DNA of 64,000 nt from Christensenellales bacterium (GCA_045114775.1 JBGULC010000028.1:20483-84482), one strand, 5' to 3'; counted from the first letter of the stretch, positions 32,040 to 63,713 are shown. Notes: generated by a model not told the origin, from the letters alone. A program made the numbers and translations.

Positions 32040-32235
32040 TGATTCTATCCTCCTGCTAAAATGTCCGGATCGTACAGACAAGTCATCGAATTATCGATCA
32101 AACGGTTACGCTGTAACGATTCCTTCTCTATAACGATCACCGTGCGCATATCTGTTCACAGTATCGTCATAATTTCTGATATATCATATCATACTCTTTC
32201 TGTTTTTGCAAGCATTCTGTAAAAAAAGATACGGT

Positions 32236-34032: not shown

Positions 34033-34171
34033 CAAGGTCAACTCCTTTTCCCCGGCAAACAGCGTCCGCCGACTGTACATAATTTCATATATTGCATTAT
34101 ATCATAGGATCCAATCGGATACAAGGAATTTCTTGCACGCGGGGCAAAAGAACGTCTGTGCCAGGTACAAG

Positions 34172-37016: not shown

Positions 37017-37880
37017 TTATTCAACCTCCCGCGCAGAAAGAAGACGCAAAAATGCCGCCATGCCGCCGGTCTTTCCTTTATCACGCCGATGCGAGTACAG
37101 CCGCTCGTCCTCAAACGTGCAAACGCCCATCAGGTGGATGTGCTCCGGAACGACGCCGCATTCCAGAAACTGCGCTGTCGCGACCTGCCAGAGATCGACC
37201 GTCGCACGGCCTCTTTGGTTCACGCCGCGAAGATCGCACTGCGGGAACGCGGTCTCGAAGCTCTCCGCAACATCGTCGCCGACCTCAAAGCATTTCGGAC
37301 AGATCGAAGGCCCGACGCCGCAGACGATATCCTTTGGGTCGGAGCCGATCGCCGTCTGCATCGTTCTGATGACCTCGGTGCCGATGCGGTCCAGCGCGCC
37401 GCGCCAGCCCGCGTGGCAGAGCCCGATCCCGTGTTTCACCGGATCGTAGAAATAGAACGCCATGCAGTCGGCATGTCCGGTGATCAGCGTGACCTCCGGG
37501 TCGTCGGTCACAAGCCCGTCGCAGAACGGGAGCGGCTCGCGGTCATAGCCCCTTCTGCAGTCGAAACGGTTCACGCAGAGCACCGTCGTGCCGTGCTCAT
37601 AGGTGTCCATGACCATGCTGTCCAGCGGGATATTCGCCGCGTCACAGAAGATGCGGTAGTTTTCCATCACGTTCTCACGCTGCTCCGGCCGCGTGAAGCT
37701 CAGGTTCAGCGAGGAAAAGCAACCCTCGGAGACGCCGCCGGTCCGCGCCGAAAAGCCGTGGTCGATCCCCGGGTACGCCGAAAACGCCGGGATCGTATAG
37801 ATACCGACGTTGTTTACTTCCCGATAGGCATGCGCGGGAACGATCGACCGAAAGATGCGGGTGAATTCTTCGCGCGTCAT
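37017..37880 (-). CDS. pgeF: peptidoglycan editing factor PgeF / YfiH (DUF152 laccase-domain) protein
   Basis: HGTTVLCV...TGHADCMAFYFYDP...GLCHAGWRGAL...CTFEDERLYSHRRD. Confidence 0.85.
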   Translation of the reverse strand: MTREEFTRIFRSIVPAHAYREVNNVGIYTIPAFSAYPGIDHGFSARTGGVSEGCFSSLNLSFTRPEQRENVMENYRIFCDAANIPLDSMVMDTYEHGTTVLCVNRFDCRRGYDREPLPFCDGLVTDDPEVTLITGHADCMAFYFYDPVKHGIGLCHAGWRGALDRIGTEVIRTMQTAIGSDPKDIVCGVGPSICPKCFEVGDDVAESFETAFPQCDLRGVNQRGRATVDLWQVATAQFLECGVVPEHIHLMGVCTFEDERLYSHRRDKGKTGGMAAFLRLLSAREVE

Positions 37881-38332
37881 TTTTCGTTCAGAAGCCGCTG
37901 CAGTTCCTGCAGGAAGGTCTGCGAATCCTTGAACTCGCGGTAGACCGACGCAAAGCGCACATATGCGACCTCGTCCACGTCGCGGAGCTTCTTCATGACC
38001 AGCTCGCCGATCGCTTCCGTCGAGACCTCGGAATCCAAAGAGTTATTGATCTCGCGGCAGATCTCGTCGACCAGACGGTTCTGCACGTCCGCGGGGATCG
38101 GGCGCTTTTCACACGCCTTGCGGATGCCGACCGCGACCTTCTCGCGCTCGAACGGCTCGCGCCGCCCGTCGCGCTTGACGACCATGACCGGATTCTCCTC
38201 GATGCGCTCCCAGGTCGTGAACCTGCGGCCGCAGCCGATGCACTCCCTTCGCCGACGGATCGCGCTGTAATCTTCATTCGGACGCGAGTCGATGACCTTG
38301 CTGTCCGTCCCTCCGCAATACCGGCACTTCAT
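37877..38332 (-). CDS. nrdR: transcriptional repressor NrdR
   Basis: MKCRYCGGTDSKVIDSRPNEDYSAIRRRRECIGCGRRFTTWERIE zinc ribbon plus an ATP-cone. Confidence 0.95.
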   Translation of the reverse strand: MKCRYCGGTDSKVIDSRPNEDYSAIRRRRECIGCGRRFTTWERIEENPVMVVKRDGRREPFEREKVAVGIRKACEKRPIPADVQNRLVDEICREINNSLDSEVSTEAIGELVMKKLRDVDEVAYVRFASVYREFKDSQTFLQELQRLLNEK

Positions 38333-38437
38333 AGGGCTGCCCTCCTTGTATTGATGCGATACTTATTTAGGATAGTATAGCACAGTACAAAAGAAACCCG
38401 AACCCGTCCGGACGCGAATTTACGGATTGTTCAGAAA

Positions 38438-38719
38438 TTACGGCAGCTCGACCAGGATCACGTCCTCGCCGAGCTTTTTGATCTTATTGAACGGGATCGC
38501 CATGCCCTCGCGGCCCTTCAAAAGCCCGAACATGCGCGAGCCGCCCGGCACGATGATCGCCCGCACCTCCCCCGCGCACGGATCAAACTCGAGATCGCTG
38601 ACGTTCCCGTAGCGCTCCCCCGTACAGATATTGATGACCTCCCTGCTCTTCAGTTCCGAAAACAGCATACGCGCTCCGCTCCTCTCTTTTCTGACTTGAA
38701 GTTCCGTCGTCGTTTCCAT
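38438..38719 (-). CDS. ylmC: YlmC/YmxH-family sporulation protein (PRC barrel)
   Basis: LKSREVINICTGERYGNVSDLEFDPCAGEVRAIIVPG...IPFNKIKKLGEDVILVEL. GGAGG lies 6 nt before ATG 38719. An alternative start is at 38668. Confidence 0.8.
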   Translation of the reverse strand: METTTELQVRKERSGARMLFSELKSREVINICTGERYGNVSDLEFDPCAGEVRAIIVPGGSRMFGLLKGREGMAIPFNKIKKLGEDVILVELP

Positions 38720-38828: not shown

Positions 38829-39107
38829 ATGCAACGATCTAATGCTGGCGGCGGGACCTGCTGTTTTACGGACCGCGTTCCCGCCGTCGATCCCACCACG
38901 GTCGATAACGTCGTGCCCGCGGGCGCCGTTTCCTCGGCGAATCCCTGCGGCATGCCGAGCGGCGGCAGCGGCTGCGCGCCGGCGACCGTTTATTTCCCGA
39001 CCCAGGTGTACCGCGCGGGCTTCTGCCCCTGCGAAGCGCTTGCGCACGGTACCCTTTTTCCGGAGCTCGTCTCCGATTATCCCACATGCCGGAACGGGGA
39101 GGTATAA
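38829..39107 (+). CDS. cotJA: spore coat-associated protein CotJA
   Basis: YFPTQVYRAGFCPCEALAHGTLFPELVSDY matches the CotJA C-terminal signature. AAGGAGG RBS. First gene of a cotJABC arrangement. Confidence 0.75.
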   Translation: MQRSNAGGGTCCFTDRVPAVDPTTVDNVVPAGAVSSANPCGMPSGGSGCAPATVYFPTQVYRAGFCPCEALAHGTLFPELVSDYPTCRNGEV

Positions 39108-39108
39108 G

Positions 39109-39360
39109 ATGACAAACTGCAATGAACAGGCGCTGCTTACGAAGATCGGCGAAGCGCGCTTCGCCTGCGTCGAGCTGCAGCTCTATCTCGACACCCACCC
39201 CGAGGACCTCGAGGCAAAGAACGACTTCAACAGCTACGCGGAAGCGCTGCAGCGCCTTTGCGCGGAATACACGGAAAGCTACGGACCGCTGGAAAACTTC
39301 GGCAACAGCACGCACGACGCGGGCAGCTGGGTCTACCAGAAGTGGCCGTGGCAGAACTGA
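39109..39360 (+). CDS. cotJB: spore coat protein CotJB
   Basis: MTNCNEQALLTKIGEARFACVELQLYLDTHPEDLEAKNDFNSY...WPWQN. Start ATG 39109 behind GGAGG. The track's longer ORF 38842..39360 is an upstream extension. Confidence 0.85.
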   Translation: MTNCNEQALLTKIGEARFACVELQLYLDTHPEDLEAKNDFNSYAEALQRLCAEYTESYGPLENFGNSTHDAGSWVYQKWPWQN

Positions 39361-39372
39361 GGAGGCAAGCTT

Positions 39373-39972
39373 ATGTGGATCTATGAAAAACGACTGGAAT
39401 ACCCCGTCCGCATCACCAAGCCCGACCCTAAAATGGCAAAGCTCCTGATGGCGCAGTACGGCGGACCTGATTCGGAGCTCGGCGCGGGGCTCCGCTACCT
39501 CACGCAGCGCTATTCGATGCCGGACGACCGCATCCGCGCGACTCTGACGGACATCGGCACCGAGGAAATCGCCCACTGGGAGATGATCGCGACGATGATC
39601 ACGCAGTGCATGCAGGGCGCAAGCCTCGAGGAACTCTCCGCCGCAGGGCTCGACGGCTACTATACGATGCACGGCACCGGCGTCTTCCCCGCCGACCCGA
39701 ACGGCGTGCCCTTTACCTCCGCCTATATCGCCTGCACCGGCGATCCGATCGCGGATCTATCCGAGGACATGGCGGCCGAGCAGAAGGCGCGGGCGACCTA
39801 TGAGCATCTGATGAACATGACGAACAACAGCCAGATCATCGAGCCGCTGTACTTTCTTCGCGAGCGCGAGATCGTACACTATCAGCGTTTCGGCGAGTGC
39901 CTCGAGATCATGCAGGCGATCAAGACCGGCCGCAGCGCTCCCTCCTGCCGCTGCACGAGACGGCGCTATTGA
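39373..39972 (+). CDS. cotJC: spore coat protein CotJC (manganese-catalase family)
   Basis: MWIYEKRLEYPVRITKPDPKMAKLLMAQYGGPDSELGAGLRYLTQRY...EEIAHWEMI. Confidence 0.9.
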   Translation: MWIYEKRLEYPVRITKPDPKMAKLLMAQYGGPDSELGAGLRYLTQRYSMPDDRIRATLTDIGTEEIAHWEMIATMITQCMQGASLEELSAAGLDGYYTMHGTGVFPADPNGVPFTSAYIACTGDPIADLSEDMAAEQKARATYEHLMNMTNNSQIIEPLYFLREREIVHYQRFGECLEIMQAIKTGRSAPSCRCTRRRY

Positions 39973-40119
39973 CCACTCCCCTTTCCGGGAACATGAAACG
40001 GGGCGAAGCCATTTGGCTTCGTCCCTTCGTTATATTTCACCGCAAGGCATTAAGTCGTGCGCTGCCTTTCTTTATTTCCGCTTCATATTCCTTCTCTCTG
40101 CGGAAACTGTGACACTTGG

Positions 40120-43100
40120 TTATGCAGCGTCCGTCAGCTTCAGCTTTTTGACTTTCTTCAGCGCGATCGCGTTGACGATGACCGTGAATACGATCGTCAT
40201 CAGCGCGCCGATCGCCCATGCGAAGATCGACGGATGGCGGTCAAACTGTACATAGCTCTGCTCCAGCGAGCGTACGATCTTATAGCCGATGCCTGCACCG
40301 AGTCCGATGCCGAGCAAAATACCTACTGCAGTCGTGACGACCGTTTCGCGCAGAACGTAGCCGATGACCTCCCGGACCGTAAAACCGTTGATTCGCATGA
40401 TCGTCAGCTCCGGCAGCTTCTGCATGATATAGATATTCGTCAGGTTCATCAGCACGACGCCTGCCATGACCGCCGCCATGAAGATGAACAGCAGCACGAC
40501 CATGTTCATCACGCTGGTCGCCGTTTCAAACAGCGTTTTAAAGGAATCGGAATGCGTGTAGCTCTCATACCCCTCGATCGTGCCGAGCTTTTCGAGCAGC
40601 GGATCGAGCTCCGTACCGTCGAGCCGGATCAAAAATGCGTTCGTTTCCGGATTGTGTCCGAACAAGTTCCGAAAGCAGGCGTCGCTCATGTACATCGTTC
40701 TTTCGGTATAAACATTGAAGATGCCTGCGATTTTCGTGTGCGCCGTCTCCGAGCCGTTCAGGATGATCTCTATCGGATCGCCTGCCTTGACGTTATAGTT
40801 TTCGGAAAACCGCTTTGAGACCAGTACGCCCTCCTCGGTCGGTGGAATCGGTTCGCCGGTTTTGATGTCGGCAATGCGTATCATCTCGTTGATCGCGGAA
40901 AGATCTCCGACGTACAGCTCCTGCATATCGAGGTCCTTGATGTGCACGGTCACGTTCTTCCTGAGAACGGGACAGCTCTTTGCGCCTGCGTCCTTCAGGA
41001 TCCGTGCGACGGTATCCGGTGCATCGGCGTTCGTTTCGGGATCGAGCGACACCATGCCGTCATAATGGATGATCTCGCTGAGCTGCAGTTTCAGCGCATT
41101 GCTGACCGCGTTTCGGAGCGTGATGCCGATAACGACCAGCGCGCAGCAGCCCGCGACACTGACGATCGTAACGAGCACGCGGCGAAAATCCGTACGCATA
41201 TTCAGAAGAATAAGGCGCGAATACAGCGACAGCGCGGACCGTTTGCCGGACGCCGCTTTGTTCCTGCCCTTCGGAACCGACTGCTGCATCAGCCTGATCG
41301 CCGGTGTGCGCAGCAGCTTTGCGCATGCAAACCAAATGGAGAAAAATGCCAAAGCAACGCCTGCGAAAAACACGATCGCCGTCGGAAGCACAGCCATTGC
41401 CGGTTTTCTCAGATCGAAATCGAAATAGAGGTTATAGCCGTTGGTGATGAAGCTCTGAATCCAGAACCGCGCGATCAGCAGACCGATCACACAGCCGAGC
41501 AGTGTTGCCGAGATCCCGAACAGCAGGTATTTCGCGAAAATCTCACGGTTGAAGAAGCCAAGCGCCTTCGTCGTCCCGATCTGCCTGCGCTGTTCGTCTA
41601 CCATCTTGCTGATCGTTGCATAGATGACAAGCGCGCCGACCAGAACGAACAGAAGCGCAAAGGTCATTTCCATGCTCTTCAAGTTGTCCGCAGCGGTCCC
41701 GAGCTGCACAAAACCGACGTTCCCGAAGCCGTCCATCACGATCCAGTTGCATGGACCGAGTGCGTCGGCACGTTTTTGCGCCTCTGCGAGCGCTTCCCGG
41801 CCTTCACTGTACTGTTTCAGTCCGTCCGCATAATCCCGTTCGCCATCCTCAAGCTTGATACGCGCATCATCGAGTTCCCGGCGGCCGTTTTCAAGGTCGA
41901 TAAGCCCCTGCGCGTACTGTGCTTCCCCGTCGTTGTACTGCCGAAGTCCGTCCTCATATTGCGCAAGTCCCTCGGCGTACCGCGCCTCGCCCTCCTGATA
42001 CAGCTTAAGCGCGCTCTCGTATTTTGCAAGTCCGTTGCGGTACTGTTTGAGTCCCGAAAGATAGGTCCCGTGTCCGTTGTCCCACTTGGTGCATCCGTCG
42101 GCGAGCGCGTCGTACTGCGATTGATACTCGCCCGCGAGCGACGCAACGCGGTCGGCAAGGAGTTTCCGTGCAACTTCCGGATCGTAATCACCCTCGCCGC
42201 CGAACTGTTCGAACGCTTTGCGCAGTACGCGGTCCGGAATCTGCACTGTGTGCATGAGCTGATCGATCTTGTCGGACAACGATGAGCCGAGATTGATTTT
42301 GAAATTGTCCGTAATCCAAAAATCGCTTGCGGAAACGCCGGAACTGTTCGGATTCGCCTGCTTCGGCTTCGCCCAGGCAATCCACTGGGAAGAATCCTCA
42401 CCGATAATGTCATCAAGCCCGGTATGCAGCTTGTTCCGAATCTGCGTCTTGGCATTCTCGATCGTGTTCCAACCGGAAACGAGCTGCCGTTTTGCCGAAT
42501 CGAGTTTCGTTTCCGTCTCCTGAAGCTGCGACTCGCCCGTTTCAAGCTCAGCTTTTGCCGTGTCGAGCTCCGCGCGGCTGTTCTGAAGCTGCTGTTCGGC
42601 ATTCGCAAGCTGCTGCTTGACTTCGTCCAGCTGTTTCCGTGCGTCTTCGAGCTTTTTTTTGCCTTCCTCGTAGTCCCGCTCGCCCTCCGCAAGCTGTTTT
42701 TTGCCGTCGTCGAGCTCCGCACGCCCGTTTTTGAGCTTCACTTCGGCTTCGTCAAGCGTTCGGCGGTTCTCGTCGATTATCGTCTGCGCCTGTGCCTTGA
42801 CCGATTCCTCGCGGCGCGGCGCTAAGGTCTTTGCTGCCGTTTCCATCCGTTCGCGTACCTCGACCGACGCCGTCCGGTATTCGGCCTCAAATCGGTTCAG
42901 GTCGATCGTACGGTCTGCCATGATCAAAGCCTTCATAAAGCAGCCGTCCAGCGCATCCTCATCGAACGCCGCGGGCGTTACGATGATGTATTGCGTTTCC
43001 GGAATGCTGTTGCAGACATGATCCGGATGCAGAACTGCGCCGCATATGGAAAACGAATCGGTTCTGAGGTACTGCGGCGTCGCGCCTTCGGCGCTCGCGA

Positions 43101-43548
43101 CCGCGACCGTATCGCCGACCTTCCACCCCATCTGGTCCATCAGCCGCTGTTCTACGGCGCATTCGGCGTCGTTTTCCGGCAGACGCCCTTCATATACGGT
43201 CGGGATGTTGATCCGTTCCGTCTTGGAAATCACATAAGCGTCCGTGCGGGTATCATCGGACGCCACCTTGACGGAAATCATATAAATGCCTTCGACGTCT
43301 TCCACGCCCTCCGTATTCCGGACAACGTCCATATCCGCTTCGGAGAGCAGCATTGTGGAAACGATCTCAACGTCACGGAATTTCGTGTCGCGATAAAAGG
43401 CGGTGCCGTTTCTCCGGAGCGCAGCCGCCGCGTATTCGATCCCGAGAAAAATCGTCACGCCGAGCGCGGCGATCACGATGATCGACAAAAATGAGATCTG
43501 TAATCTCAGGATATTCCGGATCGCGTCCTTAAACTGTGTCTTCTTCAT
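40120..43548 (-). CDS. FtsX/MacB-type ABC permease (two FtsX modules) with a ~370-aa coiled-coil ectodomain insert
   Basis: 1142 aa. TM1 after MKKTQFKDAIRNILRL. The heptad-rich insert spans aa ~225-595. There are two 4-TM FtsX-like blocks. Directly downstream of the ATPase gene. Confidence 0.85.
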   Translation of the reverse strand: MKKTQFKDAIRNILRLQISFLSIIVIAALGVTIFLGIEYAAAALRRNGTAFYRDTKFRDVEIVSTMLLSEADMDVVRNTEGVEDVEGIYMISVKVASDDTRTDAYVISKTERINIPTVYEGRLPENDAECAVEQRLMDQMGWKVGDTVAVASAEGATPQYLRTDSFSICGAVLHPDHVCNSIPETQYIIVTPAAFDEDALDGCFMKALIMADRTIDLNRFEAEYRTASVEVRERMETAAKTLAPRREESVKAQAQTIIDENRRTLDEAEVKLKNGRAELDDGKKQLAEGERDYEEGKKKLEDARKQLDEVKQQLANAEQQLQNSRAELDTAKAELETGESQLQETETKLDSAKRQLVSGWNTIENAKTQIRNKLHTGLDDIIGEDSSQWIAWAKPKQANPNSSGVSASDFWITDNFKINLGSSLSDKIDQLMHTVQIPDRVLRKAFEQFGGEGDYDPEVARKLLADRVASLAGEYQSQYDALADGCTKWDNGHGTYLSGLKQYRNGLAKYESALKLYQEGEARYAEGLAQYEDGLRQYNDGEAQYAQGLIDLENGRRELDDARIKLEDGERDYADGLKQYSEGREALAEAQKRADALGPCNWIVMDGFGNVGFVQLGTAADNLKSMEMTFALLFVLVGALVIYATISKMVDEQRRQIGTTKALGFFNREIFAKYLLFGISATLLGCVIGLLIARFWIQSFITNGYNLYFDFDLRKPAMAVLPTAIVFFAGVALAFFSIWFACAKLLRTPAIRLMQQSVPKGRNKAASGKRSALSLYSRLILLNMRTDFRRVLVTIVSVAGCCALVVIGITLRNAVSNALKLQLSEIIHYDGMVSLDPETNADAPDTVARILKDAGAKSCPVLRKNVTVHIKDLDMQELYVGDLSAINEMIRIADIKTGEPIPPTEEGVLVSKRFSENYNVKAGDPIEIILNGSETAHTKIAGIFNVYTERTMYMSDACFRNLFGHNPETNAFLIRLDGTELDPLLEKLGTIEGYESYTHSDSFKTLFETATSVMNMVVLLFIFMAAVMAGVVLMNLTNIYIMQKLPELTIMRINGFTVREVIGYVLRETVVTTAVGILLGIGLGAGIGYKIVRSLEQSYVQFDRHPSIFAWAIGALMTIVFTVIVNAIALKKVKKLKLTDAA

Positions 43549-43554
43549 AACGGA

Positions 43555-44775
43555 TCACCAGACAAGCTCCTCCGCATGGACCGGATGCAGATTCTTTTTG
43601 ATGCTTGCGATCTTTCCGTTGCGCACCTTCACCACACGATCCGCCATCTTGGCGATCTCGGGGTTGTGCGTGACCATCATGACCGTCGCGCCTTCATTGC
43701 GCACGATCTCCTCGACGACCGACAAAACCTCGATGCTCGTCGTGTAGTCGAGCGCCGCGGTCGGCTCGTCGGCAAGGATCAGTTTCGGTTTCTTGACGAT
43801 CGCACGCGCGATCGAAACGCGCTGCTGCTGGCCGCCGGACATCTGCCCGGGGTAGTTTCCCGCGCGTTCGGAAAGGCCCACCTTTGCGATCGCGTCCGCC
43901 GCGTCCATCGGCTCCTTCACGAGCTCTGCGATGAACTGCACGTTCTCGAGCGCGGTCAAGTTCGGCATCAGGTTATAGGATTGGAAGATGAAGCCGATAT
44001 ACTCGCGGCGGTACTTTGTCAGCTCTGCGTCCGACGGATGCGAAAAGTCCTTGCCTTCGACCGTCAGTGTGCCGTCGGTTAAGAAATCCATACCGCCGAC
44101 GATGTTCATCATAGTGGACTTGCCGCAGCCGGATTCGCCGAGCACGACCACGAATTCGTTCTTGTAAATGTCGAGGTTGACGCCCTTCAGGACCTGCAGC
44201 ACGCCGTCGCCGGACGGGAACTCCTTGGTGACGTTCCGGAGCGTCGCAAGAACCTCCTTCTGTTCGCCGAGGTTGACGATCAGCCCTTTTTCATCGATCG
44301 TTATCGCGGCGAGCGACGCCATGCGTTCGCAAAGCTTCAGCTCCTCCGCGTCATAGAGCGAGCCGTCCTTCTTATTGACGATTTGCACGCAGCCGATCAC
44401 GTCATGCAGATTGTTGAGCGGCACACAGATCATAGTCTTGGTGACGAGCCCGTTGTCGTCGAACACGGAGCCCTCGAAGCGCGAATCGTTCGCTGCATCC
44501 TCTACGATCACGGACTTGCCGGTCTTGGTGACAACGCCCTCGATCCCGAGTCCGTTTTCCACCGTGATGTTGGAAATGTCCGCCGGACCGATGTGAAACA
44601 TCGGGGTCAGCCGGTCCGTTTTGGAATCCAGAAGCCAGATCGCGCCGGCTTCGCTGTTCAGTGTCTTGACGATGATCTCCAGACTGCCGGAAAGCGCGTC
44701 GTCAAGGTTGTCCACCTCCAAAAGCTGCTCCATGATCTGCCATGTCGCTTTGGTGAATCGTTTTTCATCTGCCAT
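43555..44775 (-). CDS. GAF domain fused to a MacB/LolD-type ABC ATP-binding protein
   Basis: The N-terminal ~170 aa are GAF-like (AGAIWLLDSKTDRL...GIEGVVTKTGKSVIVEDAANDSRF...MICVPL). Then Walker A GESGCGKST, signature MSGGQQQRVSIARA and Walker B LILADEPTAALD. Start ATG 44775 behind AAGGAG. Confidence 0.85.
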   Translation of the reverse strand: MADEKRFTKATWQIMEQLLEVDNLDDALSGSLEIIVKTLNSEAGAIWLLDSKTDRLTPMFHIGPADISNITVENGLGIEGVVTKTGKSVIVEDAANDSRFEGSVFDDNGLVTKTMICVPLNNLHDVIGCVQIVNKKDGSLYDAEELKLCERMASLAAITIDEKGLIVNLGEQKEVLATLRNVTKEFPSGDGVLQVLKGVNLDIYKNEFVVVLGESGCGKSTMMNIVGGMDFLTDGTLTVEGKDFSHPSDAELTKYRREYIGFIFQSYNLMPNLTALENVQFIAELVKEPMDAADAIAKVGLSERAGNYPGQMSGGQQQRVSIARAIVKKPKLILADEPTAALDYTTSIEVLSVVEEIVRNEGATVMMVTHNPEIAKMADRVVKVRNGKIASIKKNLHPVHAEELVW

Positions 44776-44885
44776 GGTTCCGGTCTCCTTTATTGTCAAA
44801 TGGTCGTTTCAATTTTGTGCGGTCCGATGAAAAGCGCACCGCAGTCCGAAAAGGGCGCTCTAAGGTCGTGAAGGACCGGTTCGCA

Positions 44886-45030
44886 TCAGTTCTCGGTAAA
44901 CGCCGCTTCATAGTCCTCCGACGTTCTGCCGCCGTTGATGTCGAATCCTTTTTTGAAGCTGTACTGCGAGACGCCGGTCTCCACACAGTAATTTATGTCA
45001 TCCACTTTGAAGACCCGAATATACAGGTCT
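44886..45030 (-). pseudogene. possible AraC-family C-terminal HTH remnant
   Basis: The minus frame reads ...DLYIRVFKVDDINYCVETGVSQYSFKKGFDINGGRTSEDYEAAFTEN*. This resembles the last helix region of AraC/XylS proteins (G-F/V-S-x-x-S-Y-F-x-x-x-F-K-K...Y). There is no start codon or N-terminal part. Confidence 0.25.
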
Positions 45031-45037
45031 TCATTTT

Positions 45038-47074
45038 TTAAAGTTTTTTCCGTATCGTCAGGATGTTTTGTCCGAATTTATATGCATAGTCCATGCCGTC
45101 CATGGTCTTCTTCACCAGAAAGATGCCCAACCCGCCGATCGGTCTGTCCTCTGCGGAAAGATGCACATCCGGGTCTTTCTTCTCCAGAGGGTTATAGGGC
45201 ATCCCCTTGTCCAGGAAGGTCAGGGTCGCCGTTTTTGACGCCTGCTCGTATCCGAACCGCACGGTGACGGGACCGGTCCCCGGTGCATAGGCGTACTGGG
45301 AGATGTTCGCCATGATCTCGTCGATCGCCACACCGATCTGCATCTTTGCCTTCGGCGGGCAGTCGACAGCGTCCAGCTCCGCTTCGACGAAATCGGTCAC
45401 CGCAGGGATATTTCCGACCGCGGCTTCCACGGTCAGCGCCTTCACGGACGCAGCGGCCTTCGGTCCCTTATATTCGAGGCAGAGCATGGTGAGATCGTCG
45501 AACTGCTCCGCCTCCTGCACAAAGTCGTCCACCGCCCGGCGTACGCTGCGCAGGATCGCCTCCGGCGCTTCGTCCTTGGCGTCGTTCAACGCGGCGACCA
45601 TCCGCTCGGAACCGAAAAGCTCGTTCTTCGCGTTGCTCGCTTCGGGCACACCGTCCGTATAGACGAAAATCTTTGCTCCCGGCGTCAGTTGAACCTCATA
45701 TTCCCGATACCGGGCGCCGCTCATGCCGCCGATCACAAGACCGTGCTTATCCTTCAACAGGGCAAAGTCTCCGTCCGGCTCCTTGATCACCGGATATTCG
45801 TGTCCCGCGTTTGCCGCCGTGAGCTTGCCGGTGGAGATCTCCAGGATCCCCAGCCACACGGTGACGAACATCTGTTCCTGATTGTTGGAGCAGATCGCCT
45901 CGTTGGTCTTGGTCAAGGTCGCCGCCGGACCGTGTCCCAGCATGGCGCAGCTCTGCAGGATGATCTTGGAAGCCATCATGAACAGCGCCGCCGGCACGCC
46001 CTTTCCGGACACGTCGGCGATGACCAATCCCAGATGGTCCTCGTCGATCAGGAAGAAATCGAAGAAATCGCCGCCCACTTCCTTGGCGGGATCCATGGAA
46101 GCATAGAGCGCGAACTCCGGCCGGTCGGGGAAAGGCGGGAACAGATGCGGCACGAACGCCGCCTGAATGCGGGTCGCGAGAGACAGCTCCGTGCTGATGC
46201 GCTCCCGTTCGGCGGTGATCTGCGTGATATCCGAGATGTAGGTCTCGATCTGCTCCTCCATCGTGTCGATGGACTTTGCCAGCTGCCCGATCTCGTCCTT
46301 GTTGCGGATGACCTCCTGCAGCTTCTGCGCGGACGCCGTATTCTCCCGGGAGAACCGCGCCGCCTCCTCCGTGATCAGATTGACGGGACGCAGCAGCACC
46401 CGATGCAGGTATAAGCTCTGTCCCAGGATCACGAGCAGCACCAGCGTCACGACGGCAAGCGCGATCTTGTTGAGGAAGGTGCTGCGTACGCCGGCGAGGA
46501 TGTCCATCTGCCGCTGCACGCAAAGGATCCCCTTCACGCTGCCGTCAGACCCCAGAAGCCCGATCATGGCGGTGATGTGCGAATCGGTCTCGATGTTGCC
46601 CTTGTCCCGGATCACCAGCTCCCGATCCGCTTCCAGCTCGTAGAGCGCGCGGTATTTTTCCCGATACTCGTCGTTGGTGGTGTCCCGCACGAAGCCGAAA
46701 TCGTACTTGGTATAGGAGCTGTCGTGATCGATCGTTGAGAACAGAAAGGTGATATGCCGATAATCCGACCGGTCGGGCTCGATCACATAGATGAAGGTGG
46801 ACCCGGACGTATTGCACAGGTGGTCCAGCCGATCCCATACCTCCTTGTATGCAGGGGTGACGCCGCCGCTTTGGGCGTATTCGTCTATGTTATCGGCGTC
46901 AACGAGCTCGGCGGCTGTTTGCGCCGTCAGAAAAGCGCCCTCCGCGTACTGATTCAGCAGCGCGTCGGTGAAGGTCCGATAGCCGATGATGCCGACGACC
47001 ACGGAAAACAGCACCAGCAGCAGCACGATGCCGGCTATGCTCTTGACGGTAATGTGTTGTCGCAGCCACTTCAT
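45038..47074 (-). CDS. sensor PP2C (SpoIIE-family) phosphatase fused to a C-terminal RsbW/SpoIIAB-like HATPase domain
   Basis: TM, extracytoplasmic region, TM, then a HAMP-like segment. PP2C core EVGGDFFDFFLIDEDHLGLVIADVSGKGVPAALFM. C-terminal ATPase-like domain (IDEIMANISQYAY...GGLGIFLVKKTMD). The start is uncertain (ATG 47074 or TTG 47113). Confidence 0.8.
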   Translation of the reverse strand: MKWLRQHITVKSIAGIVLLLVLFSVVVGIIGYRTFTDALLNQYAEGAFLTAQTAAELVDADNIDEYAQSGGVTPAYKEVWDRLDHLCNTSGSTFIYVIEPDRSDYRHITFLFSTIDHDSSYTKYDFGFVRDTTNDEYREKYRALYELEADRELVIRDKGNIETDSHITAMIGLLGSDGSVKGILCVQRQMDILAGVRSTFLNKIALAVVTLVLLVILGQSLYLHRVLLRPVNLITEEAARFSRENTASAQKLQEVIRNKDEIGQLAKSIDTMEEQIETYISDITQITAERERISTELSLATRIQAAFVPHLFPPFPDRPEFALYASMDPAKEVGGDFFDFFLIDEDHLGLVIADVSGKGVPAALFMMASKIILQSCAMLGHGPAATLTKTNEAICSNNQEQMFVTVWLGILEISTGKLTAANAGHEYPVIKEPDGDFALLKDKHGLVIGGMSGARYREYEVQLTPGAKIFVYTDGVPEASNAKNELFGSERMVAALNDAKDEAPEAILRSVRRAVDDFVQEAEQFDDLTMLCLEYKGPKAAASVKALTVEAAVGNIPAVTDFVEAELDAVDCPPKAKMQIGVAIDEIMANISQYAYAPGTGPVTVRFGYEQASKTATLTFLDKGMPYNPLEKKDPDVHLSAEDRPIGGLGIFLVKKTMDGMDYAYKFGQNILTIRKKL

Positions 47075-47105
47075 GGAATGCTCTTTTCCCTTTCCCGCGC
47101 AGAGG

Positions 47106-47402
47106 TCATTCAACGGTCAGGATGTCCGAAAAACCGGTGACTTCGAAGATCTCCAGGATCATTTCATTCGCATGGATCACCTTCATGGTCCCCTGCCGGT
47201 TCATCGTCTTCAGCGCCGCAAGCAGCACGCGAAGCCCCGCCGAAGAGATGTAATCGAGCTTCTCGAAATCAAAGGTCAGCTCCTCCACGCCAACGAGCGC
47301 GTCGTTCAGCACCGTCTCCAGTTCCGGCGCGGTCGTCGTGTCCAGTCGCCCTTCGAGGGCGATCGTCAGCGCTTTTTCATTTTTGGTTTGCAGAATCGTC
47401 AT
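47106..47402 (-). CDS. STAS-domain anti-sigma-factor antagonist (SpoIIAA/RsbV-like)
   Basis: 98 aa with the conserved phosphorylatable Ser context DFEKLDYISSAGLRVLL. Confidence 0.85.
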   Translation of the reverse strand: MTILQTKNEKALTIALEGRLDTTTAPELETVLNDALVGVEELTFDFEKLDYISSAGLRVLLAALKTMNRQGTMKVIHANEMILEIFEVTGFSDILTVE

Positions 47403-47516: not shown

Positions 47517-47936
47517 TTACGGTCTGCCGTAATAGAACTCGGTCGCGGTCACGTTTTTCTGGATCAGAACGGAGCTCTGATGAAACGCCGCGATCAGGTC
47601 GTCCGCAGCGGCGTGAACGGCTTCCGCGCTCGTGTCGCTCAGATAGATCACGATCGTGTATTCGCGATAGAGCATCTCTCCGTCTGCCCAGCCGCCGTTC
47701 GCCTCCTGGATCGTCCAGCCGCCGACATGCTTGAGCAGGATCTCCTCCGCTTTCGTTTTGGCTTCGTCCGGCGTGAACACCGGCTCGTTCGTATCCTTAT
47801 CATTCGTACCGAGATACATGACGTACTGCACGTCCCCCGCTGCCTGCTTCGGCAGCAGCGCAACGATCATTCCCGCGACCGACAGGCACAGCGCGACGGC
47901 GGCAAGAACGATTGCAGCGACAGATCTTTTATTCAT
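47517..47936 (-). CDS. membrane-anchored small protein of unknown function
   Basis: MNKRSVAAIVLAAVALCLSVAG TM anchor followed by a ~100-aa domain (YVMYLGTNDKD...GGWTIQEANGGW...YTIVIYL...HQSSVLIQ). It reminds me of a DUF family, but I have not verified this. Start moved to ATG 47936 to avoid overlap. Confidence 0.5.
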   Translation of the reverse strand: MNKRSVAAIVLAAVALCLSVAGMIVALLPKQAAGDVQYVMYLGTNDKDTNEPVFTPDEAKTKAEEILLKHVGGWTIQEANGGWADGEMLYREYTIVIYLSDTSAEAVHAAADDLIAAFHQSSVLIQKNVTATEFYYGRP

Positions 47937-47971
47937 AACGGTAAACACCGCTCGGATCGTACCCGCGTCCG

Positions 47972-48937
47972 TTACATCTGCTGATGCAGCTTGCGGAACT
48001 TCGGGGATTTGGAATCGAGCATTTTGAAGCTCTCCTCCGACGGAATATCGTTCTTGCCGGAGTCGATGTAGTTTCTCAGCACGCCGACCAGCACGAACGG
48101 CTTGATAAAGACCGAGTGGATGATCGCCCACATGATGATCCCGATGAGCGTCGCAAAAGCGATGGGCAGCGTTTGGGGATTTGTGAGGATCTTACCGAGC
48201 CAGTTCGTCGTATCGGTAAGATTTTCCGCCATCCACGCCGCAAGCGGTTCATAGAACGTCTGTCCCTTCAGGATCAGGTAGGCGATAACGCCGAATATGC
48301 CGCCGATCCCGAGCAGAGAAACAAGGCCCATGCCGAACACGCGGCCCATGTTCTTGGCAAACGTCTTGCCGTGCTTGAAGAACAGCACCGCGCCTTCGCA
48401 CGCCGCCTTTGCGGGCTTGACCTCCTTGCGGTAGAAGACCCAGCCGAGGCAGCAGTCGCAAAGGTAATTGACGATCGTCTGCATGGCGGAGCTTACCGCG
48501 CTGCCGACCGCGCCGCCGGTGTCGCCGCCGATGCTTTCACCGAGCTTCGTGACGCCGCGGCCGATCTGGTTGAAGATGCCCCGGATCACGCCGGTGATCG
48601 CGTAGAACGCCGCAACGGTCGCAAAGCGCTCTTTCACGACCTTCTTGCCCTCCTTGATGACGTTGTCGGGCAGTTCGCCTTCGGCAACGCCACGGGTCAT
48701 CATGGCGATCTGTCCCGCTTTCAGCGAATAGGAAATGAACCGCGTGATGAGGATCATCAGAGCGACGCCGATCACCGCGCCGATCAACAAACCGATCGGC
48801 CCGTTCTGCGCGAATTTTTCACCGAGGAAATACCCGAGCGTTCCCGCGCCGAGAAGCAGCGCAACCGAAATGATGTCCCAGAACACGCGGCGCAGAGAGA
48901 AGCCGAGCGTCTTTTTGTAGATTTGTTTGTTGTCCAT
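47972..48937 (-). CDS. polytopic membrane protein of unknown function
   Basis: 321 aa with several predicted TM helices. GGAGG RBS before ATG 48937. No recognisable motif. Confidence 0.55.
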   Translation of the reverse strand: MDNKQIYKKTLGFSLRRVFWDIISVALLLGAGTLGYFLGEKFAQNGPIGLLIGAVIGVALMILITRFISYSLKAGQIAMMTRGVAEGELPDNVIKEGKKVVKERFATVAAFYAITGVIRGIFNQIGRGVTKLGESIGGDTGGAVGSAVSSAMQTIVNYLCDCCLGWVFYRKEVKPAKAACEGAVLFFKHGKTFAKNMGRVFGMGLVSLLGIGGIFGVIAYLILKGQTFYEPLAAWMAENLTDTTNWLGKILTNPQTLPIAFATLIGIIMWAIIHSVFIKPFVLVGVLRNYIDSGKNDIPSEESFKMLDSKSPKFRKLHQQM

Positions 48938-49005
48938 AGTTGCCTCCTAATCCTTATCTTTTATTTTCATGTGTTTATGAACAGTCCCGTAAGATTCACG
49001 GGATC

Positions 49006-50043
49006 TCAGCCCTTCATTGCGTTGAAGAGGATCTTGCGGGATCCGCCCTTATCGTCCGTTGCGCCGCTGCGCGCGAACGCGAGCGCGACGACAAACAGCA
49101 GATCGAGGTTCTTCTCGCTCGTGAAGATGCGGTAGAAGCCCGGAACCGGGACCTTGTTCGCGACCGCATGCTCCTCCGCGTCCTCCTCATGGACGTACTG
49201 ACTCGAGGCCTCGATATAGCCGATCTCCGCGCCGTCTCTCGAAACCGTGTAGGACGGGAACAGAACCTTGCCCTGCGCAAAGCGGGATTCCACCTTGACG
49301 CCGTTCTTTTTGAGGTGCTTCCAGATGTCCTCGCCGTCCAGCGAGAAGGTGTAGTGGTTGTCGAGCAGGAAGGAATCCCAGTCGGTCTCCTCCTGGTGCC
49401 CGACAAGATGCGCCTTGGTCGTGCCGTGCTCGTGGTCGATGAAGTCGAAGCCGAACGGACCCGCCAGCGTGAACTTCGTCATCTTTGCTTCGTAGAGAAC
49501 CTTGCGGTCCTTGTCCTCGATGCGGTGCCCGTACTTCGGCGTGCCGAGATCGGTCAAGAAGTACAGCTCTCGCTGTTCGCCCTGCTCGGACGGCGCATAG
49601 ACGGTCTCGCCCTGTGTTTCCTTGAGCTTTTTGACGTCGATCTTCTTTTTGACCGTGAGTCCGACCACTAAAAGCAGGATGACCGCGCCCGCGATCATAA
49701 GATAGATGCCGAAGCCCTTAGAGGACGTGATCTTTGCGGGATTCTGCGGATCGTACTGGATTTTGATGGTCTTGCCCACCTCGTAGGAGGGGCTGTCGGA
49801 ATCGAGCTGCGTCGTGTATTCCTTGCCGCCGACCGTATACTTCACGGTCACGATCCGTCTGACGTCGTTTGCGGTGCCCGGATCGGGAATGTAATCGGGG
49901 TCGTTTTCGATGGAAACGATGGTTGCTTCCGCCTTTTCATAGCCCTTCGACCGGAAGAACGTGAAATAGACGCCGACGCCGAGCGCGATTGCGGCAAGAA
50001 TCGCCGCGAAGATTTTCAAACCGGGTCCTTTGAATGAGAACAC
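49006..50043 (-). CDS. DUF3592-like TM-sandwich-TM module fused to a LURP-one/Tubby-C-like domain
   Basis: GTG start behind AGGAGG. The N-terminal part is TM, then VTVKYTVGGKEYTTQLDSDSPSYEVGKTIKIQYDPQNP, then TM. The C-terminal ~200 aa end with FYRIFTSEKNLDLLFVVALAFA, a buried-helix pattern I remember from LOR/scramblase-like folds. Confidence 0.55.
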   Translation of the reverse strand: MFSFKGPGLKIFAAILAAIALGVGVYFTFFRSKGYEKAEATIVSIENDPDYIPDPGTANDVRRIVTVKYTVGGKEYTTQLDSDSPSYEVGKTIKIQYDPQNPAKITSSKGFGIYLMIAGAVILLLVVGLTVKKKIDVKKLKETQGETVYAPSEQGEQRELYFLTDLGTPKYGHRIEDKDRKVLYEAKMTKFTLAGPFGFDFIDHEHGTTKAHLVGHQEETDWDSFLLDNHYTFSLDGEDIWKHLKKNGVKVESRFAQGKVLFPSYTVSRDGAEIGYIEASSQYVHEEDAEEHAVANKVPVPGFYRIFTSEKNLDLLFVVALAFARSGATDDKGGSRKILFNAMKG

Positions 50044-50215: not shown

Positions 50216-51016
50216 TTAGTTTTTATTATCTATTTCGGAAAGGATGCTTTCCGTCAAGCTCGCCCAGGTATAGGTGCTCATATATTCTCCCCGGTACGCG
50301 TTGATCGCCTCGCTGTCGCCCGCATGGAACCGGTATGCATCGCAGGTGAGCGTCTCCGGTCTGACGCGGAGAATCCCTTTGCTCATTTCCATGATCTCCT
50401 CAGCGCCGTACTCCCGCAAGGTATCCCGCAAAGAACGGATGTAGGTATCAAGCTGCTTCTGCATGCCGCGATCGTACGGGCGATCCTCCCATATCGCGGC
50501 AAAGAGCTCCGCCCGCGTGACACCGGAACCTTGCCGGTCTACCAGATATGCCAGAATCTCCTTGCTTTTCGCCAGTTTGAAATGCATGATCCGGTCCTTC
50601 ACAAACACATCGAAGGAACCGAAGGTCTTGATCCGTATCTGTTCGGATGTCTCGGACCGTTTCCCCTCGCACAGATAACGCACCTCCGCCGCGAGTTTTT
50701 CTAAAGACACCGGCTTCAAAAGATACCCCGTCGGATGCACTGCATACGCGTCGAAAGCATATTCTTTGTACGCGGTCAGGAACAAAATCGCCGTTTGCGG
50801 ATGCAGCTTTTTGATCCGCGCGGCAAGCGTGATGCCGTCGATTTCCGGCATATTGATATCGAGGAGGACAAGGTTGACAACATGCTCTGAAAGCCAATTC
50901 AGCGCATCCTGCGCCCTTGTAAATCCCCGGATCTCGTCGATCTCCGGCAGGCTTTCGCATTGATGTACCGTATATTCGACCGCCAGCGGCTCGTCGTCGA
51001 TACAGATCGCTTTCAC
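50216..51016 (-). CDS. response regulator: receiver + SARP/OmpR-type winged helix with the start of a BTAD-like region
   Basis: GTG start 51016 (GTGA overlap with the kinase stop, AAGGAGAG RBS). Receiver LVLLDINMPEIDG. DNA-binding part IRIKTFGSFDVFVKDRIMHFKLAKSKEILAYLVDRQG...AAIWEDRP...YIRSLRDTL. Confidence 0.8.
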   Translation of the reverse strand: MKAICIDDEPLAVEYTVHQCESLPEIDEIRGFTRAQDALNWLSEHVVNLVLLDINMPEIDGITLAARIKKLHPQTAILFLTAYKEYAFDAYAVHPTGYLLKPVSLEKLAAEVRYLCEGKRSETSEQIRIKTFGSFDVFVKDRIMHFKLAKSKEILAYLVDRQGSGVTRAELFAAIWEDRPYDRGMQKQLDTYIRSLRDTLREYGAEEIMEMSKGILRVRPETLTCDAYRFHAGDSEAINAYRGEYMSTYTWASLTESILSEIDNKN

Positions 51017-52287
51017 GGTTTTCTCTCCTTTCCTTTCCCCGCTGCATCCGGGATGAACAGTGTGACGTCGGTGCCTTTTCCGATCTCGCTTCTTAGAATC
51101 ATTGTGCCGCCGCACATCTGCTCAATGCGTTCTCTGACATTTTGAATCCCGATATGTGCTTCTCCGTCGGGCCGCTCTTTGACCGGATCAAAACCGACCC
51201 CGTTGTCCTCAATCGTGATCCGGTGTCCGCCCGTCTCATGCGCGGTAGAAACTGTCACGCGTCCCTCCCTGCAGCTTCGGACCCCGTGCCGGATCGCGTT
51301 CTCCACGAGCGGCTGGATCGTCAAAGCAGGAATCGAAAACGCATCGTCCTCGATCCGATACTCCACACGGATCTGCGGAAAGCGGAGCGCTTCGATCTCC
51401 GCATACAGCCGCGTATGCTCCAGCTCCTTCTTGATCGGGATCAGATCGGTCCGGTCAAGCGTTTCCAGATTCTGCCGGAGGTATGTGCTGAAATCCTCCA
51501 GGATGCGGTCTCCCATGGGCGGGTCCTTTGCGTACAGCGCGCGGATGGTGTTGAGCGCGTTGAACAGAAAGTGCGGCTGGACCTGCGTCATCATGATTTG
51601 AATGCGCTGCGTTGCCATGAGGTCGCGTTCATGCGCACGGACGAACTGCAGATGCAGCCAAATATAATAGAAGACGGTGCTGATCACGATGCCGACGGTC
51701 AAAAACGTGACCGGAGAACGGAGATCTGTTGCGAATACGGAATCCATCAGAACACAGGCAATGATCAGCAGTGCGTTCAGCAGCGGGATCCACATTTCCG
51801 CTTTTTTGATCCGACGAAACGCGCGGACCGTGATCCAAAGCAGGCAGAACAGCAAAACGCCGCTGACGACGTGACAGCTGTAGCCCAGCGGTCCGCGAAG
51901 GAAGTGGTTGGTTTCATCAATGGAAAAGCTGACGCCGGAAAACAGCGCCGTAGAATAGATCAGCGCATTGGCGCCGACCAGCGTCCAGAAAGGCCAGATC
52001 CTGCGCTTTGTGCCGAACAGGTACATAAACAGCACAAGGACTGCCGGACGAACGGAATACCCGTAGATCCCGAGGATCGTCCTCGCCACGCGCTGCGTGC
52101 TGTCCTGCTCCACCCAAAAATCGAGGACATTCTGCGCAACAAGCGTCACGACCAACGCGGCGATGATCAGCATGACCCGTCGATACTCCCGACGGATATA
52201 CGGGTCGATCACGACCGTGATCGACAGCCCGAGCAGAAGCAGCAGCAGCGGCACAATCGCAACAAGCGTATCATAATTGACGGTCAT
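51013..52287 (-). CDS. LytS/YehU-type sensor histidine kinase (His_kinase + HATPase)
   Basis: About 6 N-terminal TM helices, H-region MTQVQPHFLFNALNTIRALY, ATPase region ENAIRHG...ITIEDNGVGF. Confidence 0.85.
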   Translation of the reverse strand: MTVNYDTLVAIVPLLLLLLGLSITVVIDPYIRREYRRVMLIIAALVVTLVAQNVLDFWVEQDSTQRVARTILGIYGYSVRPAVLVLFMYLFGTKRRIWPFWTLVGANALIYSTALFSGVSFSIDETNHFLRGPLGYSCHVVSGVLLFCLLWITVRAFRRIKKAEMWIPLLNALLIIACVLMDSVFATDLRSPVTFLTVGIVISTVFYYIWLHLQFVRAHERDLMATQRIQIMMTQVQPHFLFNALNTIRALYAKDPPMGDRILEDFSTYLRQNLETLDRTDLIPIKKELEHTRLYAEIEALRFPQIRVEYRIEDDAFSIPALTIQPLVENAIRHGVRSCREGRVTVSTAHETGGHRITIEDNGVGFDPVKERPDGEAHIGIQNVRERIEQMCGGTMILRSEIGKGTDVTLFIPDAAGKGKERKP

Positions 52288-55373: not shown

Positions 55374-55435
55374 ATTTCTCTCCTCTTTTCTTCGATCTTT
55401 GCCTTCATTATACGCGCGGACCGCGTTTCCGTCAA

Positions 55436-55462
55436 CGAAAAAGCGCACGGCTTTCCGTGCGC
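55436..55462 (-). terminator. terminator after the IMP dehydrogenase gene
   Basis: Minus strand: GCGCACGG-AAAG-CCGTGCGC followed by TTTTTCG. Confidence 0.65.
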
Positions 55463-60090: not shown

Positions 60091-60124
60091 GCTCGTCTTC
60101 CGTCCTTTTCAGTGTGATAAGAAT

Positions 60125-60171
60125 CTGAATATAAGAATTCGGTTCCGCATGAACCTTCATGCAGAACCGAA
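60125..60171 (-). terminator. orphaned native terminator of the rubrerythrin gene
   Basis: Minus strand: TTCGGTTCTGCATGAA-GG-TTCATGCGGAACCGAA (16-bp stem, one G-U) followed by TTCTTATATTC. It begins 18 nt after the stop of the displaced rbr fragment. Confidence 0.55.
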
Positions 60172-60188
60172 CGATCCAATGCTGCTTC

Positions 60189-60254
60189 TTATTTGAAGTA
60201 TCTCTCCAGGAGACCCTTCAGCGCCTTGCCGTGTCTTGCCTCGTCGCGCGCCAT
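60189..60254 (-). pseudogene. displaced native 3' end of the rubrerythrin gene (attL-side repeat)
   Basis: The minus strand translates to [21 protein letters not shown], identical to the C-terminus of 63118..63663. Homology stops exactly at the Met codon (upstream reads ...RSNQ). Confidence 0.75.
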
Positions 60255-60446
60255 TTGATTGCTTCGCACTGCTTGCAATCAAGGGGGGATGCTTCAAAAC
60301 GCGAACAGCACAACAAAGGACTTCCTTGATATAAGTTTAGCACATCTCCAAACAAATGTCCACATCTCTTGGACAACTTATGTTCAAGAAATCTCATCTT
60401 TGTTACAATAAAAGCCACACTTTGGACAACAAAGGAGGTTTTTTCT

Positions 60447-61661: not shown

Positions 61662-61669
61662 TGCAGAAA

Positions 61670-61723: not shown

Positions 61724-61738
61724 ACGCGCGGCGCAAGG

Positions 61739-63090: not shown

Positions 63091-63117
63091 AAAAATCCCT
63101 ATTTCAGGGTGTTTTGC

Positions 63118-63707: not shown

Positions 63708-63713
63708 TATAGT

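Follow-up and report, generated by a model that had tools for sequence, protein, structure and literature searches.

We analysed a 64,000-nucleotide stretch of the genome of a Christensenellales bacterium (GCA_045114775.1, JBGULC010000028.1:20483-84482), referred to below as the window, with a focus on four adjacent minus-strand genes that place the components of a partner switch next to an ABC transporter. In the direction of transcription, these genes encode a 98 amino acid protein that consists of a single STAS domain of the anti-sigma-antagonist type (47106-47402; Pfam and NCBIfam), a 678 amino acid membrane sensor (45038-47074), a 406 amino acid ABC ATPase fused to a GAF domain (43555-44775; Pfam and NCBIfam), and a 1142 amino acid duplicated FtsX (type VII ABC) permease with eight transmembrane helices (40120-43548; Pfam and transmembrane map). 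The sensor is made up of a first transmembrane helix, an outside domain of ~168 amino acids, a second transmembrane helix, a weak HAMP match, a PP2C domain and an RsbW-like serine kinase domain. An earlier sequence-only reading of this DNA had described four co-oriented genes at these positions, encoding a STAS protein with a phosphorylatable serine, a PP2C-kinase sensor, a GAF-ABC ATPase and a 1142 amino acid FtsX permease. All four minus-strand open reading frames (ORFs) are present and the domain calls were borne out by a Pfam run.

The STAS protein matches the Pfam STAS model (6.7e-14) and scores 65.7 bits against the NCBIfam model for the anti-sigma-factor-antagonist superfamily (TIGR00377, cut-off 53.45), and its nearest sequence relatives in the PDB are of the SpoIIAA/RsbV type. 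Ser54 is located within the conserved motif YISSAGLRVLL (sequence context ...DYISSAGLRVLL). Aligned by eye with the SpoIIAA sequence, Ser54 falls on what we take to be the phospho-serine of that protein, Ser58. The phospho-site motif YISS[AS]GLR is kept in 26 of 26 distinct STAS orthologues linked to related transporters. The sensor matches the SpoIIE/PP2C family with 6e-51 (PF07228; 45470-46045, model positions 1-191 of 192) and HATPase_c_2, the RsbW/SpoIIAB-like kinase family, with 5e-20 (PF13581; 45047-45427, model positions 2-127 of 127), and its kinase domain also gives a weak match to the NCBIfam RsbW equivalog. The PP2C metal motifs (GGDFFD, DVSGKG, TDGV and DDLT) and the N and G boxes of the kinase domain are visible in the translation. 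A hydropathy scan placed the two transmembrane helices at amino acids 13-31 and 200-218, on either side of the outside domain, while the HAMP match reached 22 bits, below its cut-off of 25. The ATG at 47074 fits the 679 amino acid orthologues of three related loci (L091-L093), and an exact look-up of the PP2C-kinase product returned no record. Judged by these motifs, the locus is predicted to hold all three activities of a partner switch: a STAS antagonist, an RsbW/SpoIIAB-type kinase and a PP2C phosphatase.

The ATPase matches GAF_2 (1e-13) and ABC_tran (2.7e-33) in Pfam, and its Walker A and B, signature and H-loop motifs are intact (GESGCGKST, SGGQQQR, ILADEPT and THN). Its best NCBIfam models are MacB (1e-62), DevA and LolD, and none of the three equivalog cut-offs is reached. 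The permease matches FtsX (8e-30) in two stretches and has additional coiled-coil-type matches. Its transmembrane helices are laid out as 1+3 and 1+3; the first outside domain spans ~590 amino acids (containing long coiled coils) and the second ~205 amino acids. The locus thus encodes a type VII (MacB-like, "mechanotransmission") ABC system.

A partner switch usually brings a sigma factor to mind, and the sequence-only reading had stated that no sigma or anti-sigma target is encoded in the window. This held for the 51 ORFs that were scanned with Pfam, none of which encodes a sigma or anti-sigma factor (three large ORFs, at 1-1785, 16308-19883 and 53910-55448, were outside the scan). Nor were sigma or anti-sigma genes found among the annotated flanking genes of related loci, which were only partly scanned. 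No second STAS, PP2C, kinase or GAF copy was detected in the 64 kb window, meaning that its sole STAS, PP2C and kinase genes are all located at this transporter.

Related loci were collected with a GAF-only alignment scan, which yielded 77 metagenome loci ranging from 97% down to 44% GAF identity, and were mapped by tblastn and homology-guided ORF calling; two assembly loci were considered as well. A STAS orthologue (51-88% identity) is located no more than four genes from the transporter module, that is the GAF-ABC and FtsX genes, in every locus with at least 80% GAF identity where both flanks are visible. This linkage spans 18 ATPase clusters (at 95% identity) and at least eight gene orders. 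The order STAS, PP2C-kinase, ATPase is found in the window and in L091-L093. In a second order, 22-97 nt separate the STAS gene from an ATPase gene immediately downstream of it (L090, L098-L103, L105, L110, L111, L120, L122, L128, L155, L161 and L162), and in a third it is one or two genes upstream, separated by a VanZ gene, a gene for a 174 amino acid protein, or a gene for a 222 amino acid protein together with a DUF3089/DUF218 gene (L113, L119 and L095-L097). In a fourth it lies directly downstream of the permease gene (gaps of 27-57 nt in L118, L126, L127 and L131, and 222 nt in L106), and in a fifth the STAS and PP2C-kinase genes are three genes further downstream (L117 and L124). The STAS gene is divergently oriented in L142, and L147 has the order PP2C-kinase, STAS, MBL-fold gene, cyclase, ATPase (then FtsX). 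The eighth arrangement consists of fusions: STAS-APH directly upstream of the module (L129:6714-7898) and STAS joined to an AMP-binding enzyme directly downstream of it (L112:6173-8032). STAS-APH-HATPase_c_2 fusions were also observed beside the module (L126:18879-20492, L111:6830-8377 on the minus strand, and L131:12750-14345). To our knowledge, no function has been described for any of these three types of fusion.

Of the 323 ORFs no more than four genes from the module, 47 are STAS ORFs, compared to two of 157 farther away (Fisher p = 6e-7, ignoring relatedness between loci). STAS divergence is correlated with ATPase divergence (Mantel r = 0.43, p = 0.01) and with permease divergence (r = 0.52, p = 5e-4). 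Precomputed gene calls and Pfam matches from other assemblies agree with this pattern: they showed a STAS gene four genes upstream of a GAF-ABC-FtsX-FtsX array at a further locus (P0100), and at another (P0061) the STAS gene is 89 nt upstream of the ATPase gene, with a SpoIIE+HATPase_c_2 gene six genes downstream of the permease gene. PP2C and kinase genes are frequent near the module but movable, being fused, split (L124 and L126), several genes away or out of view. The sequence-only reading had treated the four genes as two pairs, and the synteny of these pairs in relatives was upheld in part: the STAS gene shows a tight, recurrent linkage to GAF-ABC/FtsX, whereas the PP2C-kinase gene is displaced, split or out of view outside the window and L091-L093. 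The conserved unit is therefore STAS, GAF-ABC and FtsX, and not the two pairs as such. The retention of one small gene at both operon ends through so many rearrangements is a classic signature of functional coupling, and the linkage across at least eight gene orders argues for coupling of the STAS protein to GAF-ABC/FtsX.

The two pairs are separated in the window by a spacer between the sensor and ATPase genes, which measures 262 bp (44776-45037) and not the 240 bp first reported. The sequence-only reading had also placed a hairpin at about 45000-45030 and considered that the pairs may be separate transcripts. A stable hairpin with a 10-bp stem does exist at 45008-45033 on the coding strand (-16.2 kcal/mol, z = -3.6), but it is not a canonical terminator, nor is it a conserved one. 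AAAGUGG follows the hairpin and the T-run is on the opposite strand, the hairpin was not reported by the terminator scan, and it sits inside a ~100-nt insertion specific to the window that is missing from L091-L093, which share the STAS, PP2C-kinase, ATPase order. A role as a conserved terminator was therefore rejected. As it has no U-tract and belongs to a window-specific insertion, the hairpin is not evidence for separate transcription units. The spacer has no match to a known riboswitch or leader family in Rfam, and a common leader upstream of the ATPase gene was also rejected, as only the ribosome-binding site is shared across gene orders. The ~90 nt upstream of the ATPase start (44776-44870) are conserved in L091-L093 and L096 and contain a repeated TTTTC(N)GGAC spaced ~25 nt apart, which may be bound by the neighbouring OmpR-type regulator. 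At the other end of the transporter genes, a GC-rich hairpin followed by a T-run (40000-40025, plus strand; 11 pairs, eight of them GC, in the terminator scan) lies between the convergent cotJC and permease genes and is likely the terminator that closes the transporter unit.

The GAF domain offers a second possible input to the transporter. Profile searches against the PDB recovered phosphodiesterase and cyclase GAF domains, namely PDE5 (1e-19), PDE2A GAF-B (8e-18), PDE10A, PDE6 and CyaB2 (8e-13), and by sequence the domain is closest to GAFs that bind cyclic nucleotides. We surveyed seven loci at 44-59% GAF identity that have enough upstream flank. In all seven, which represent about three lineages, the ATPase gene is immediately preceded by a class III nucleotide cyclase gene. 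The cyclase is a PAS-cyclase in L087 (1196-2527), L088, L151 (2034-3371) and L152, and it is accompanied by an MBL-fold gene in L146, L147 (8421-9997) and L149. The MBL-fold protein could be a cyclic-nucleotide phosphodiesterase. No cyclase was found at L148 (54% GAF identity), which has ample flank, nor did the window or any locus at or above 64% GAF identity contain one. The GAF domain has a mean column conservation of 0.89 against a mean permease distance of 54%. It is thus under strong constraint where the cyclase is missing, which indicates that it is functional, and the presence of a cyclase gene upstream of this type of GAF domain in deeper relatives supports the idea of a GAF-gated transporter.

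The same data bear on an indirect form of coupling, in which the STAS protein would control a class III cyclase whose product, cyclic AMP (cAMP) or cyclic GMP (cGMP), gates the pump through the GAF domain, the cyclase gene having been relocated in the window's clade. The L147 order, which runs from PP2C-kinase and STAS through the MBL-fold and cyclase genes to GAF-ABC and FtsX, is what this route would predict, as are the cyclases directly upstream of the ATPase gene in the seven deeper loci and the cyclic-nucleotide type of the GAF domain, and STAS-like control of cyclases is reported for SiaABCD and HsbA-HsbD. However, STAS and cyclase occur together in one lineage only, and the STAS gene adjoins the ATPase gene in loci with at least 64% GAF identity where, as in the window, no cyclase was found. 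We consider this route decidedly unlikely.

Based on the domains and the genomic context, we favour a different reading, to which we assign a probability of roughly 55%: transporter activity is set at the protein level by a STAS phospho-switch together with a GAF ligand. We infer the coupling itself, direct binding between the STAS protein and the ATPase, the ligand and the substrate. The membrane sensor would provide the first input by reading an extracellular signal and balancing its own PP2C activity against its RsbW-like kinase activity on Ser54 of the STAS protein, independently of any sigma factor. Unphosphorylated STAS protein would then act on the transporter, most likely by binding the GAF-ATPase, by analogy with MlaB and MlaF. 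The second input would come from a small molecule bound by the GAF domain, for which cAMP or cGMP is the most likely candidate. The most specific form of this proposal, an ABC transporter gated jointly by a STAS protein docked on its ATPase and a cyclic nucleotide bound to the ATPase-fused GAF domain, is possible but tentative.

The presence of an RsbW-like kinase domain in the sensor also raises the question of a true partner switch acting on the pump, in which this domain would hold the ATPase until unphosphorylated STAS protein displaces it. The kinase domain is of the anti-sigma type, and genes for such kinases are repeatedly found close to the module, as free genes, in fusions or as STAS-APH-kinase. 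Many loci with STAS and the transporter nevertheless show no kinase in their visible flanks (e.g. L098, L100 and L167), and binding of an RsbW-type domain to an ABC ATPase has no known precedent, making this scheme improbable.

Several observations weigh against regulation of the transporter by the STAS protein. The PP2C-kinase gene is not consistently adjacent, lying between the STAS and ATPase genes only in the window and L091-L093, and in the window the 262-bp spacer splits the STAS/sensor pair from the ATPase/permease pair. The STAS protein fails the MlaB family model (NF033618 mlaB_1; 20 bits, cut-off 90), and the NKFDE-type signature of the GAF domain is partly kept (N134, K135, Y141 and E145 are present, the final Glu is not), with a family consensus of NKxDGxxFxxxD in this region. 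No STAS gene is present within 4-10 kb in L135-L137, L140, L145 and L148 (54-75% GAF identity) or in any locus with 50% GAF identity or less, and GAF-ABC relatives with ATPase identity of ~60% or below are without STAS, L147 being the single exception. This indicates that STAS is not needed by the GAF-ABC/FtsX family as a whole; its association is confined to a single clade of uncultured Clostridia, from rumen or gut samples as the contig names suggest. In addition, the STAS counts ignore relatedness, many loci being from similar rumen or gut metagenomes, and the sigma and anti-sigma search covered the window and annotated flanks, so a partner encoded elsewhere in the genome is possible.

Some of these points would also fit an independent partner switch that acts on a product of another part of the genome, be it a sigma factor, an anti-sigma factor or some other enzyme, and which merely shares a shuffled envelope-stress gene island with the transporter. 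Such a switch would account for the variable position of the PP2C-kinase gene, the spacer in the window and the distant GAF-ABC modules that work without STAS. It would also be in keeping with the match of the STAS protein to the anti-sigma-antagonist superfamily model, and with the recurrence in the same neighbourhoods of the histidine kinase/response regulator pair, DUF3592, the 321 amino acid protein gene, DUF3574 and DUF3089/DUF218. Against this, the STAS gene abuts either the ATPase gene (22-97 nt) or the permease gene (27-57 nt) in many independent arrangements, STAS is nearly missing beyond four genes from the module, and neither the scanned window ORFs nor the annotated, partly scanned flanks include a sigma or anti-sigma gene. 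We regard an independent switch as unlikely. As relatives keep the STAS gene beside the transporter through many rearrangements, signals that act on the STAS protein probably regulate the pump directly.

The closest precedent for this reading is the E. coli Mla system, in which the STAS protein MlaB binds the ABC ATPase MlaF and is needed for stability and activity (PMC7367683). Thr52 of MlaB, the equivalent of the phospho-site, sits in the MlaF interface and T52E weakens binding, and the authors call phosphoregulation of MlaB an open question (PMC7367683). The locus described here resembles MlaFEDB in encoding a STAS-only protein alongside an ABC transporter. MlaB has no known kinase or phosphatase, whereas this STAS protein is of the SpoIIAA/RsbV type and comes with a dedicated PP2C-kinase sensor. 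In contrast to the MlaE/MCE system, the transporter is a type VII FtsX system with a GAF-bearing ATPase in a Gram-positive spore former. The sequence-only reading had called a transporter output unusual, but MlaB-MlaF is a precedent for an ABC ATPase as the target (PMC7367683). A full-text literature search returned no description of a GAF-fused ABC ATPase and none of an FtsX/MacB-type transporter linked to a phosphorylatable STAS protein that has its own enzymes, and ABC systems are not mentioned in a review of STAS-only proteins. What is already known, then, is the existence of switches without sigma factors and of a STAS-ABC ATPase complex (Mla); what is new, from genomic context, is a phosphorylatable STAS protein and its enzymes together with an FtsX/MacB transporter.

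The switch components themselves are like those of RsbU/V/W-SigB and SpoIIE/AA/AB-SigF of Bacillus, with a phosphorylatable STAS protein, an RsbW/SpoIIAB-type kinase and a PP2C phosphatase. Unlike in the Bacillus switches, no local sigma factor was found, the kinase and phosphatase are fused in a membrane sensor, and the genomic partner is an ABC transporter. STAS switches that are sigma-independent or have several outputs are known elsewhere. SiaABCD and HsbR-HsbA of Pseudomonas reportedly control diguanylate cyclases (through SiaC and HsbA), SypE-SypA of Vibrio is said to be a sigma-independent STAS switch that acts in biofilm formation, and HsbR, SypE and Rv1364c of M. tuberculosis are each said to carry phosphatase and kinase on one polypeptide. 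HenR/All4160 of Anabaena is a STAS switch with a glycosyltransferase output (bioRxiv 10.64898/2026.04.08.717354). The present locus resembles SiaABCD, HsbR-HsbA, SypE-SypA, Rv1364c and HenR/All4160, in which a STAS phospho-switch has an output other than a sigma factor. None of these systems is known to have an ABC transporter as its output, and their inputs are REC or PAS domains whereas the sensor here is a transmembrane protein.

The transporter half of the locus is similar to the Gram-positive MacAB-type (type VII) systems Spr0693-0695 and YknXYZ and to BceAB-BceRS modules in having an FtsX-fold permease with a large outside domain and a MacB/LolD-type ATPase, often with an adjacent two-component system and an envelope-defence theme. 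It differs from Spr0693-0695, YknXYZ and BceAB in its duplicated single-chain permease, ~350 amino acids of extra coiled coil in the first outside domain, absence of an adaptor gene and N-terminal GAF domain on the ATPase, and linkage to STAS is undescribed for those systems. The cyclic-nucleotide-binding GAF domains of PDE2/5/6/10 and CyaB2 are the best sequence matches, and cyclase genes are adjacent in relatives, but those GAF domains regulate a phosphodiesterase or a cyclase whereas here the predicted domain is fused to an ABC nucleotide-binding domain.

The GAF-ABC ATPase belongs to a wider family. A search of 1.8 billion representative proteins recovered ~15 full-length GAF-ABC clusters at 31-61% identity, which share the GAF domain, the unusual Walker A motif GESGCGKST and a conserved C-terminal tail that ends in Trp. 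We examined the context of six diverged members (P0279, P0278, P0285, P0158, P0121 and P0124), in each of which the ATPase gene adjoins a large gene for a certain or probable FtsX permease. This neighbour carries an FtsX Pfam match in five of the six (the 884 amino acid neighbour of P0158 is without one), and no STAS or PP2C gene was found within 10 kb of any of them. This makes GAF-ABC with FtsX an old, self-sufficient module. A YknX-like adaptor gene is present in three of the six (L083-L085), and the permease of distant relatives is ~790 amino acids long. The window has no MacA/YknX-type adaptor gene, and the permeases of the window and of a relative with 61% identity carry at least ~350 amino acids of extra coiled coil without an adaptor gene. 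The extra coiled coil may be a built-in substitute for the adaptor. Long relatives within the ATPase subfamily (P0217, P0213, P0268 and P0256) carry other N-terminal domains, namely REC, GT8, amidohydrolase and CBAH/AAT, showing that an extra N-terminal domain is a recurring theme on this motor, with the REC case again pointing to signalling. STAS-ABC fusion proteins were looked for among these long relatives and none was found.

Variation within the module was also observed. ATPases that are at least 95% identical adjoin permeases that are only 50-80% identical. Three loci (L096:8636-14740, L098:4789-10968 and L167:9228-15544) have one GAF-ATPase gene followed by two different FtsX permease genes, encoding proteins of ~884-958 and ~1140 amino acids; the window has the long permease only and L091-L093 the short one only. 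Two loci look like deletion remnants. In L162 (10001-10168) only the first ~55 codons of the GAF-ABC gene are left, with the STAS gene retained upstream, and in L154 (9376-9770) what is left of the GAF-ABC gene runs into the final 35 permease codons. The transporter appears to be dispensable in some strains.

Genes that recur around the module encode VanZ, M15 peptidase, YkuD, DUF218/SanA-like, PAP2, monogalactosyldiacylglycerol and lysyl-phosphatidylglycerol synthases, VTT and TMEM164 proteins. Together with the frequent two-component system, these neighbours suggest a function in the cell envelope, such as a BceAB/MacB-like role in defence against compounds that target the wall or lipids. 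Genes for nonribosomal peptide synthetase-like or adenylating enzymes (Condensation, AMP-binding and PP-binding domains) lie beside the modules of L083 (1-21236), L133 (1989-4982) and L140 (15020-17356), a hint that in some lineages the substrate is acylated or a lipopeptide.

Three co-oriented minus-strand genes for membrane proteins lie upstream of the STAS gene in the window (47517-50043), encoding a DUF3574-like protein (139 amino acids), an unnamed protein (321 amino acids) and a DUF3592 protein (345 amino acids); orthologues of these genes recur around the module in L090-L098, L111, L113, L117 and L167-L170. Beyond them, also on the minus strand, is a two-component pair identified with Pfam, consisting of a PF06580-type histidine kinase and a REC/Trans_reg_C regulator (50216-52287). 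Such a pair is often located beside the module, and is upstream of it in L098 and L167-L169. On the other side, the cotJA/B/C spore-coat operon (38829-39972, plus strand) is convergent with the permease gene, and beyond it are a ymxH-like PRC-barrel gene and nrdR (37877-38719, minus strand), followed by a laccase-domain gene. The presence of cotJA/B/C with these neighbours indicates that the host is a spore-forming Firmicute. The region around ymxH and nrdR also carries sigE and sigG in many Firmicutes, and neither gene is present among the Pfam-scanned ORFs of the window's cotJ/ymxH/nrdR region. Elsewhere in the window, two large secreted proteins with multiple eukaryote-type Ig/I-set domains are encoded on the minus strand at 30147-34080, one with an added cohesin domain and the other with a BNR repeat. 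At 60001-64000 the GC content drops from ~0.58 to 0.47, and genes for a tyrosine integrase at 60369-61661 and for a WYL/WCX regulator at 61739-62575 are located there; a prophage or other mobile element probably has its edge here.

Little is understood of how bacterial ABC transporters are controlled post-translationally, and this locus, with its rearranged relatives in gut and rumen Clostridia, provides a directly testable system. If the joint gating by the STAS protein and a cyclic nucleotide is correct, this would be the first partner switch with an ABC motor as its output, and a natural system for the question posed by MlaB, namely whether STAS phosphorylation regulates ABC transporters. 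Partner switching, so far linked to sigma factors, cyclases and glycosyltransferases, would then also reach a membrane machine, and a family of GAF-fused, probably cyclic-nucleotide-sensing ATPases would join the signal-gated transporters. The surrounding genes suggest that this is relevant to cell-envelope defence in abundant uncultured gut anaerobes.

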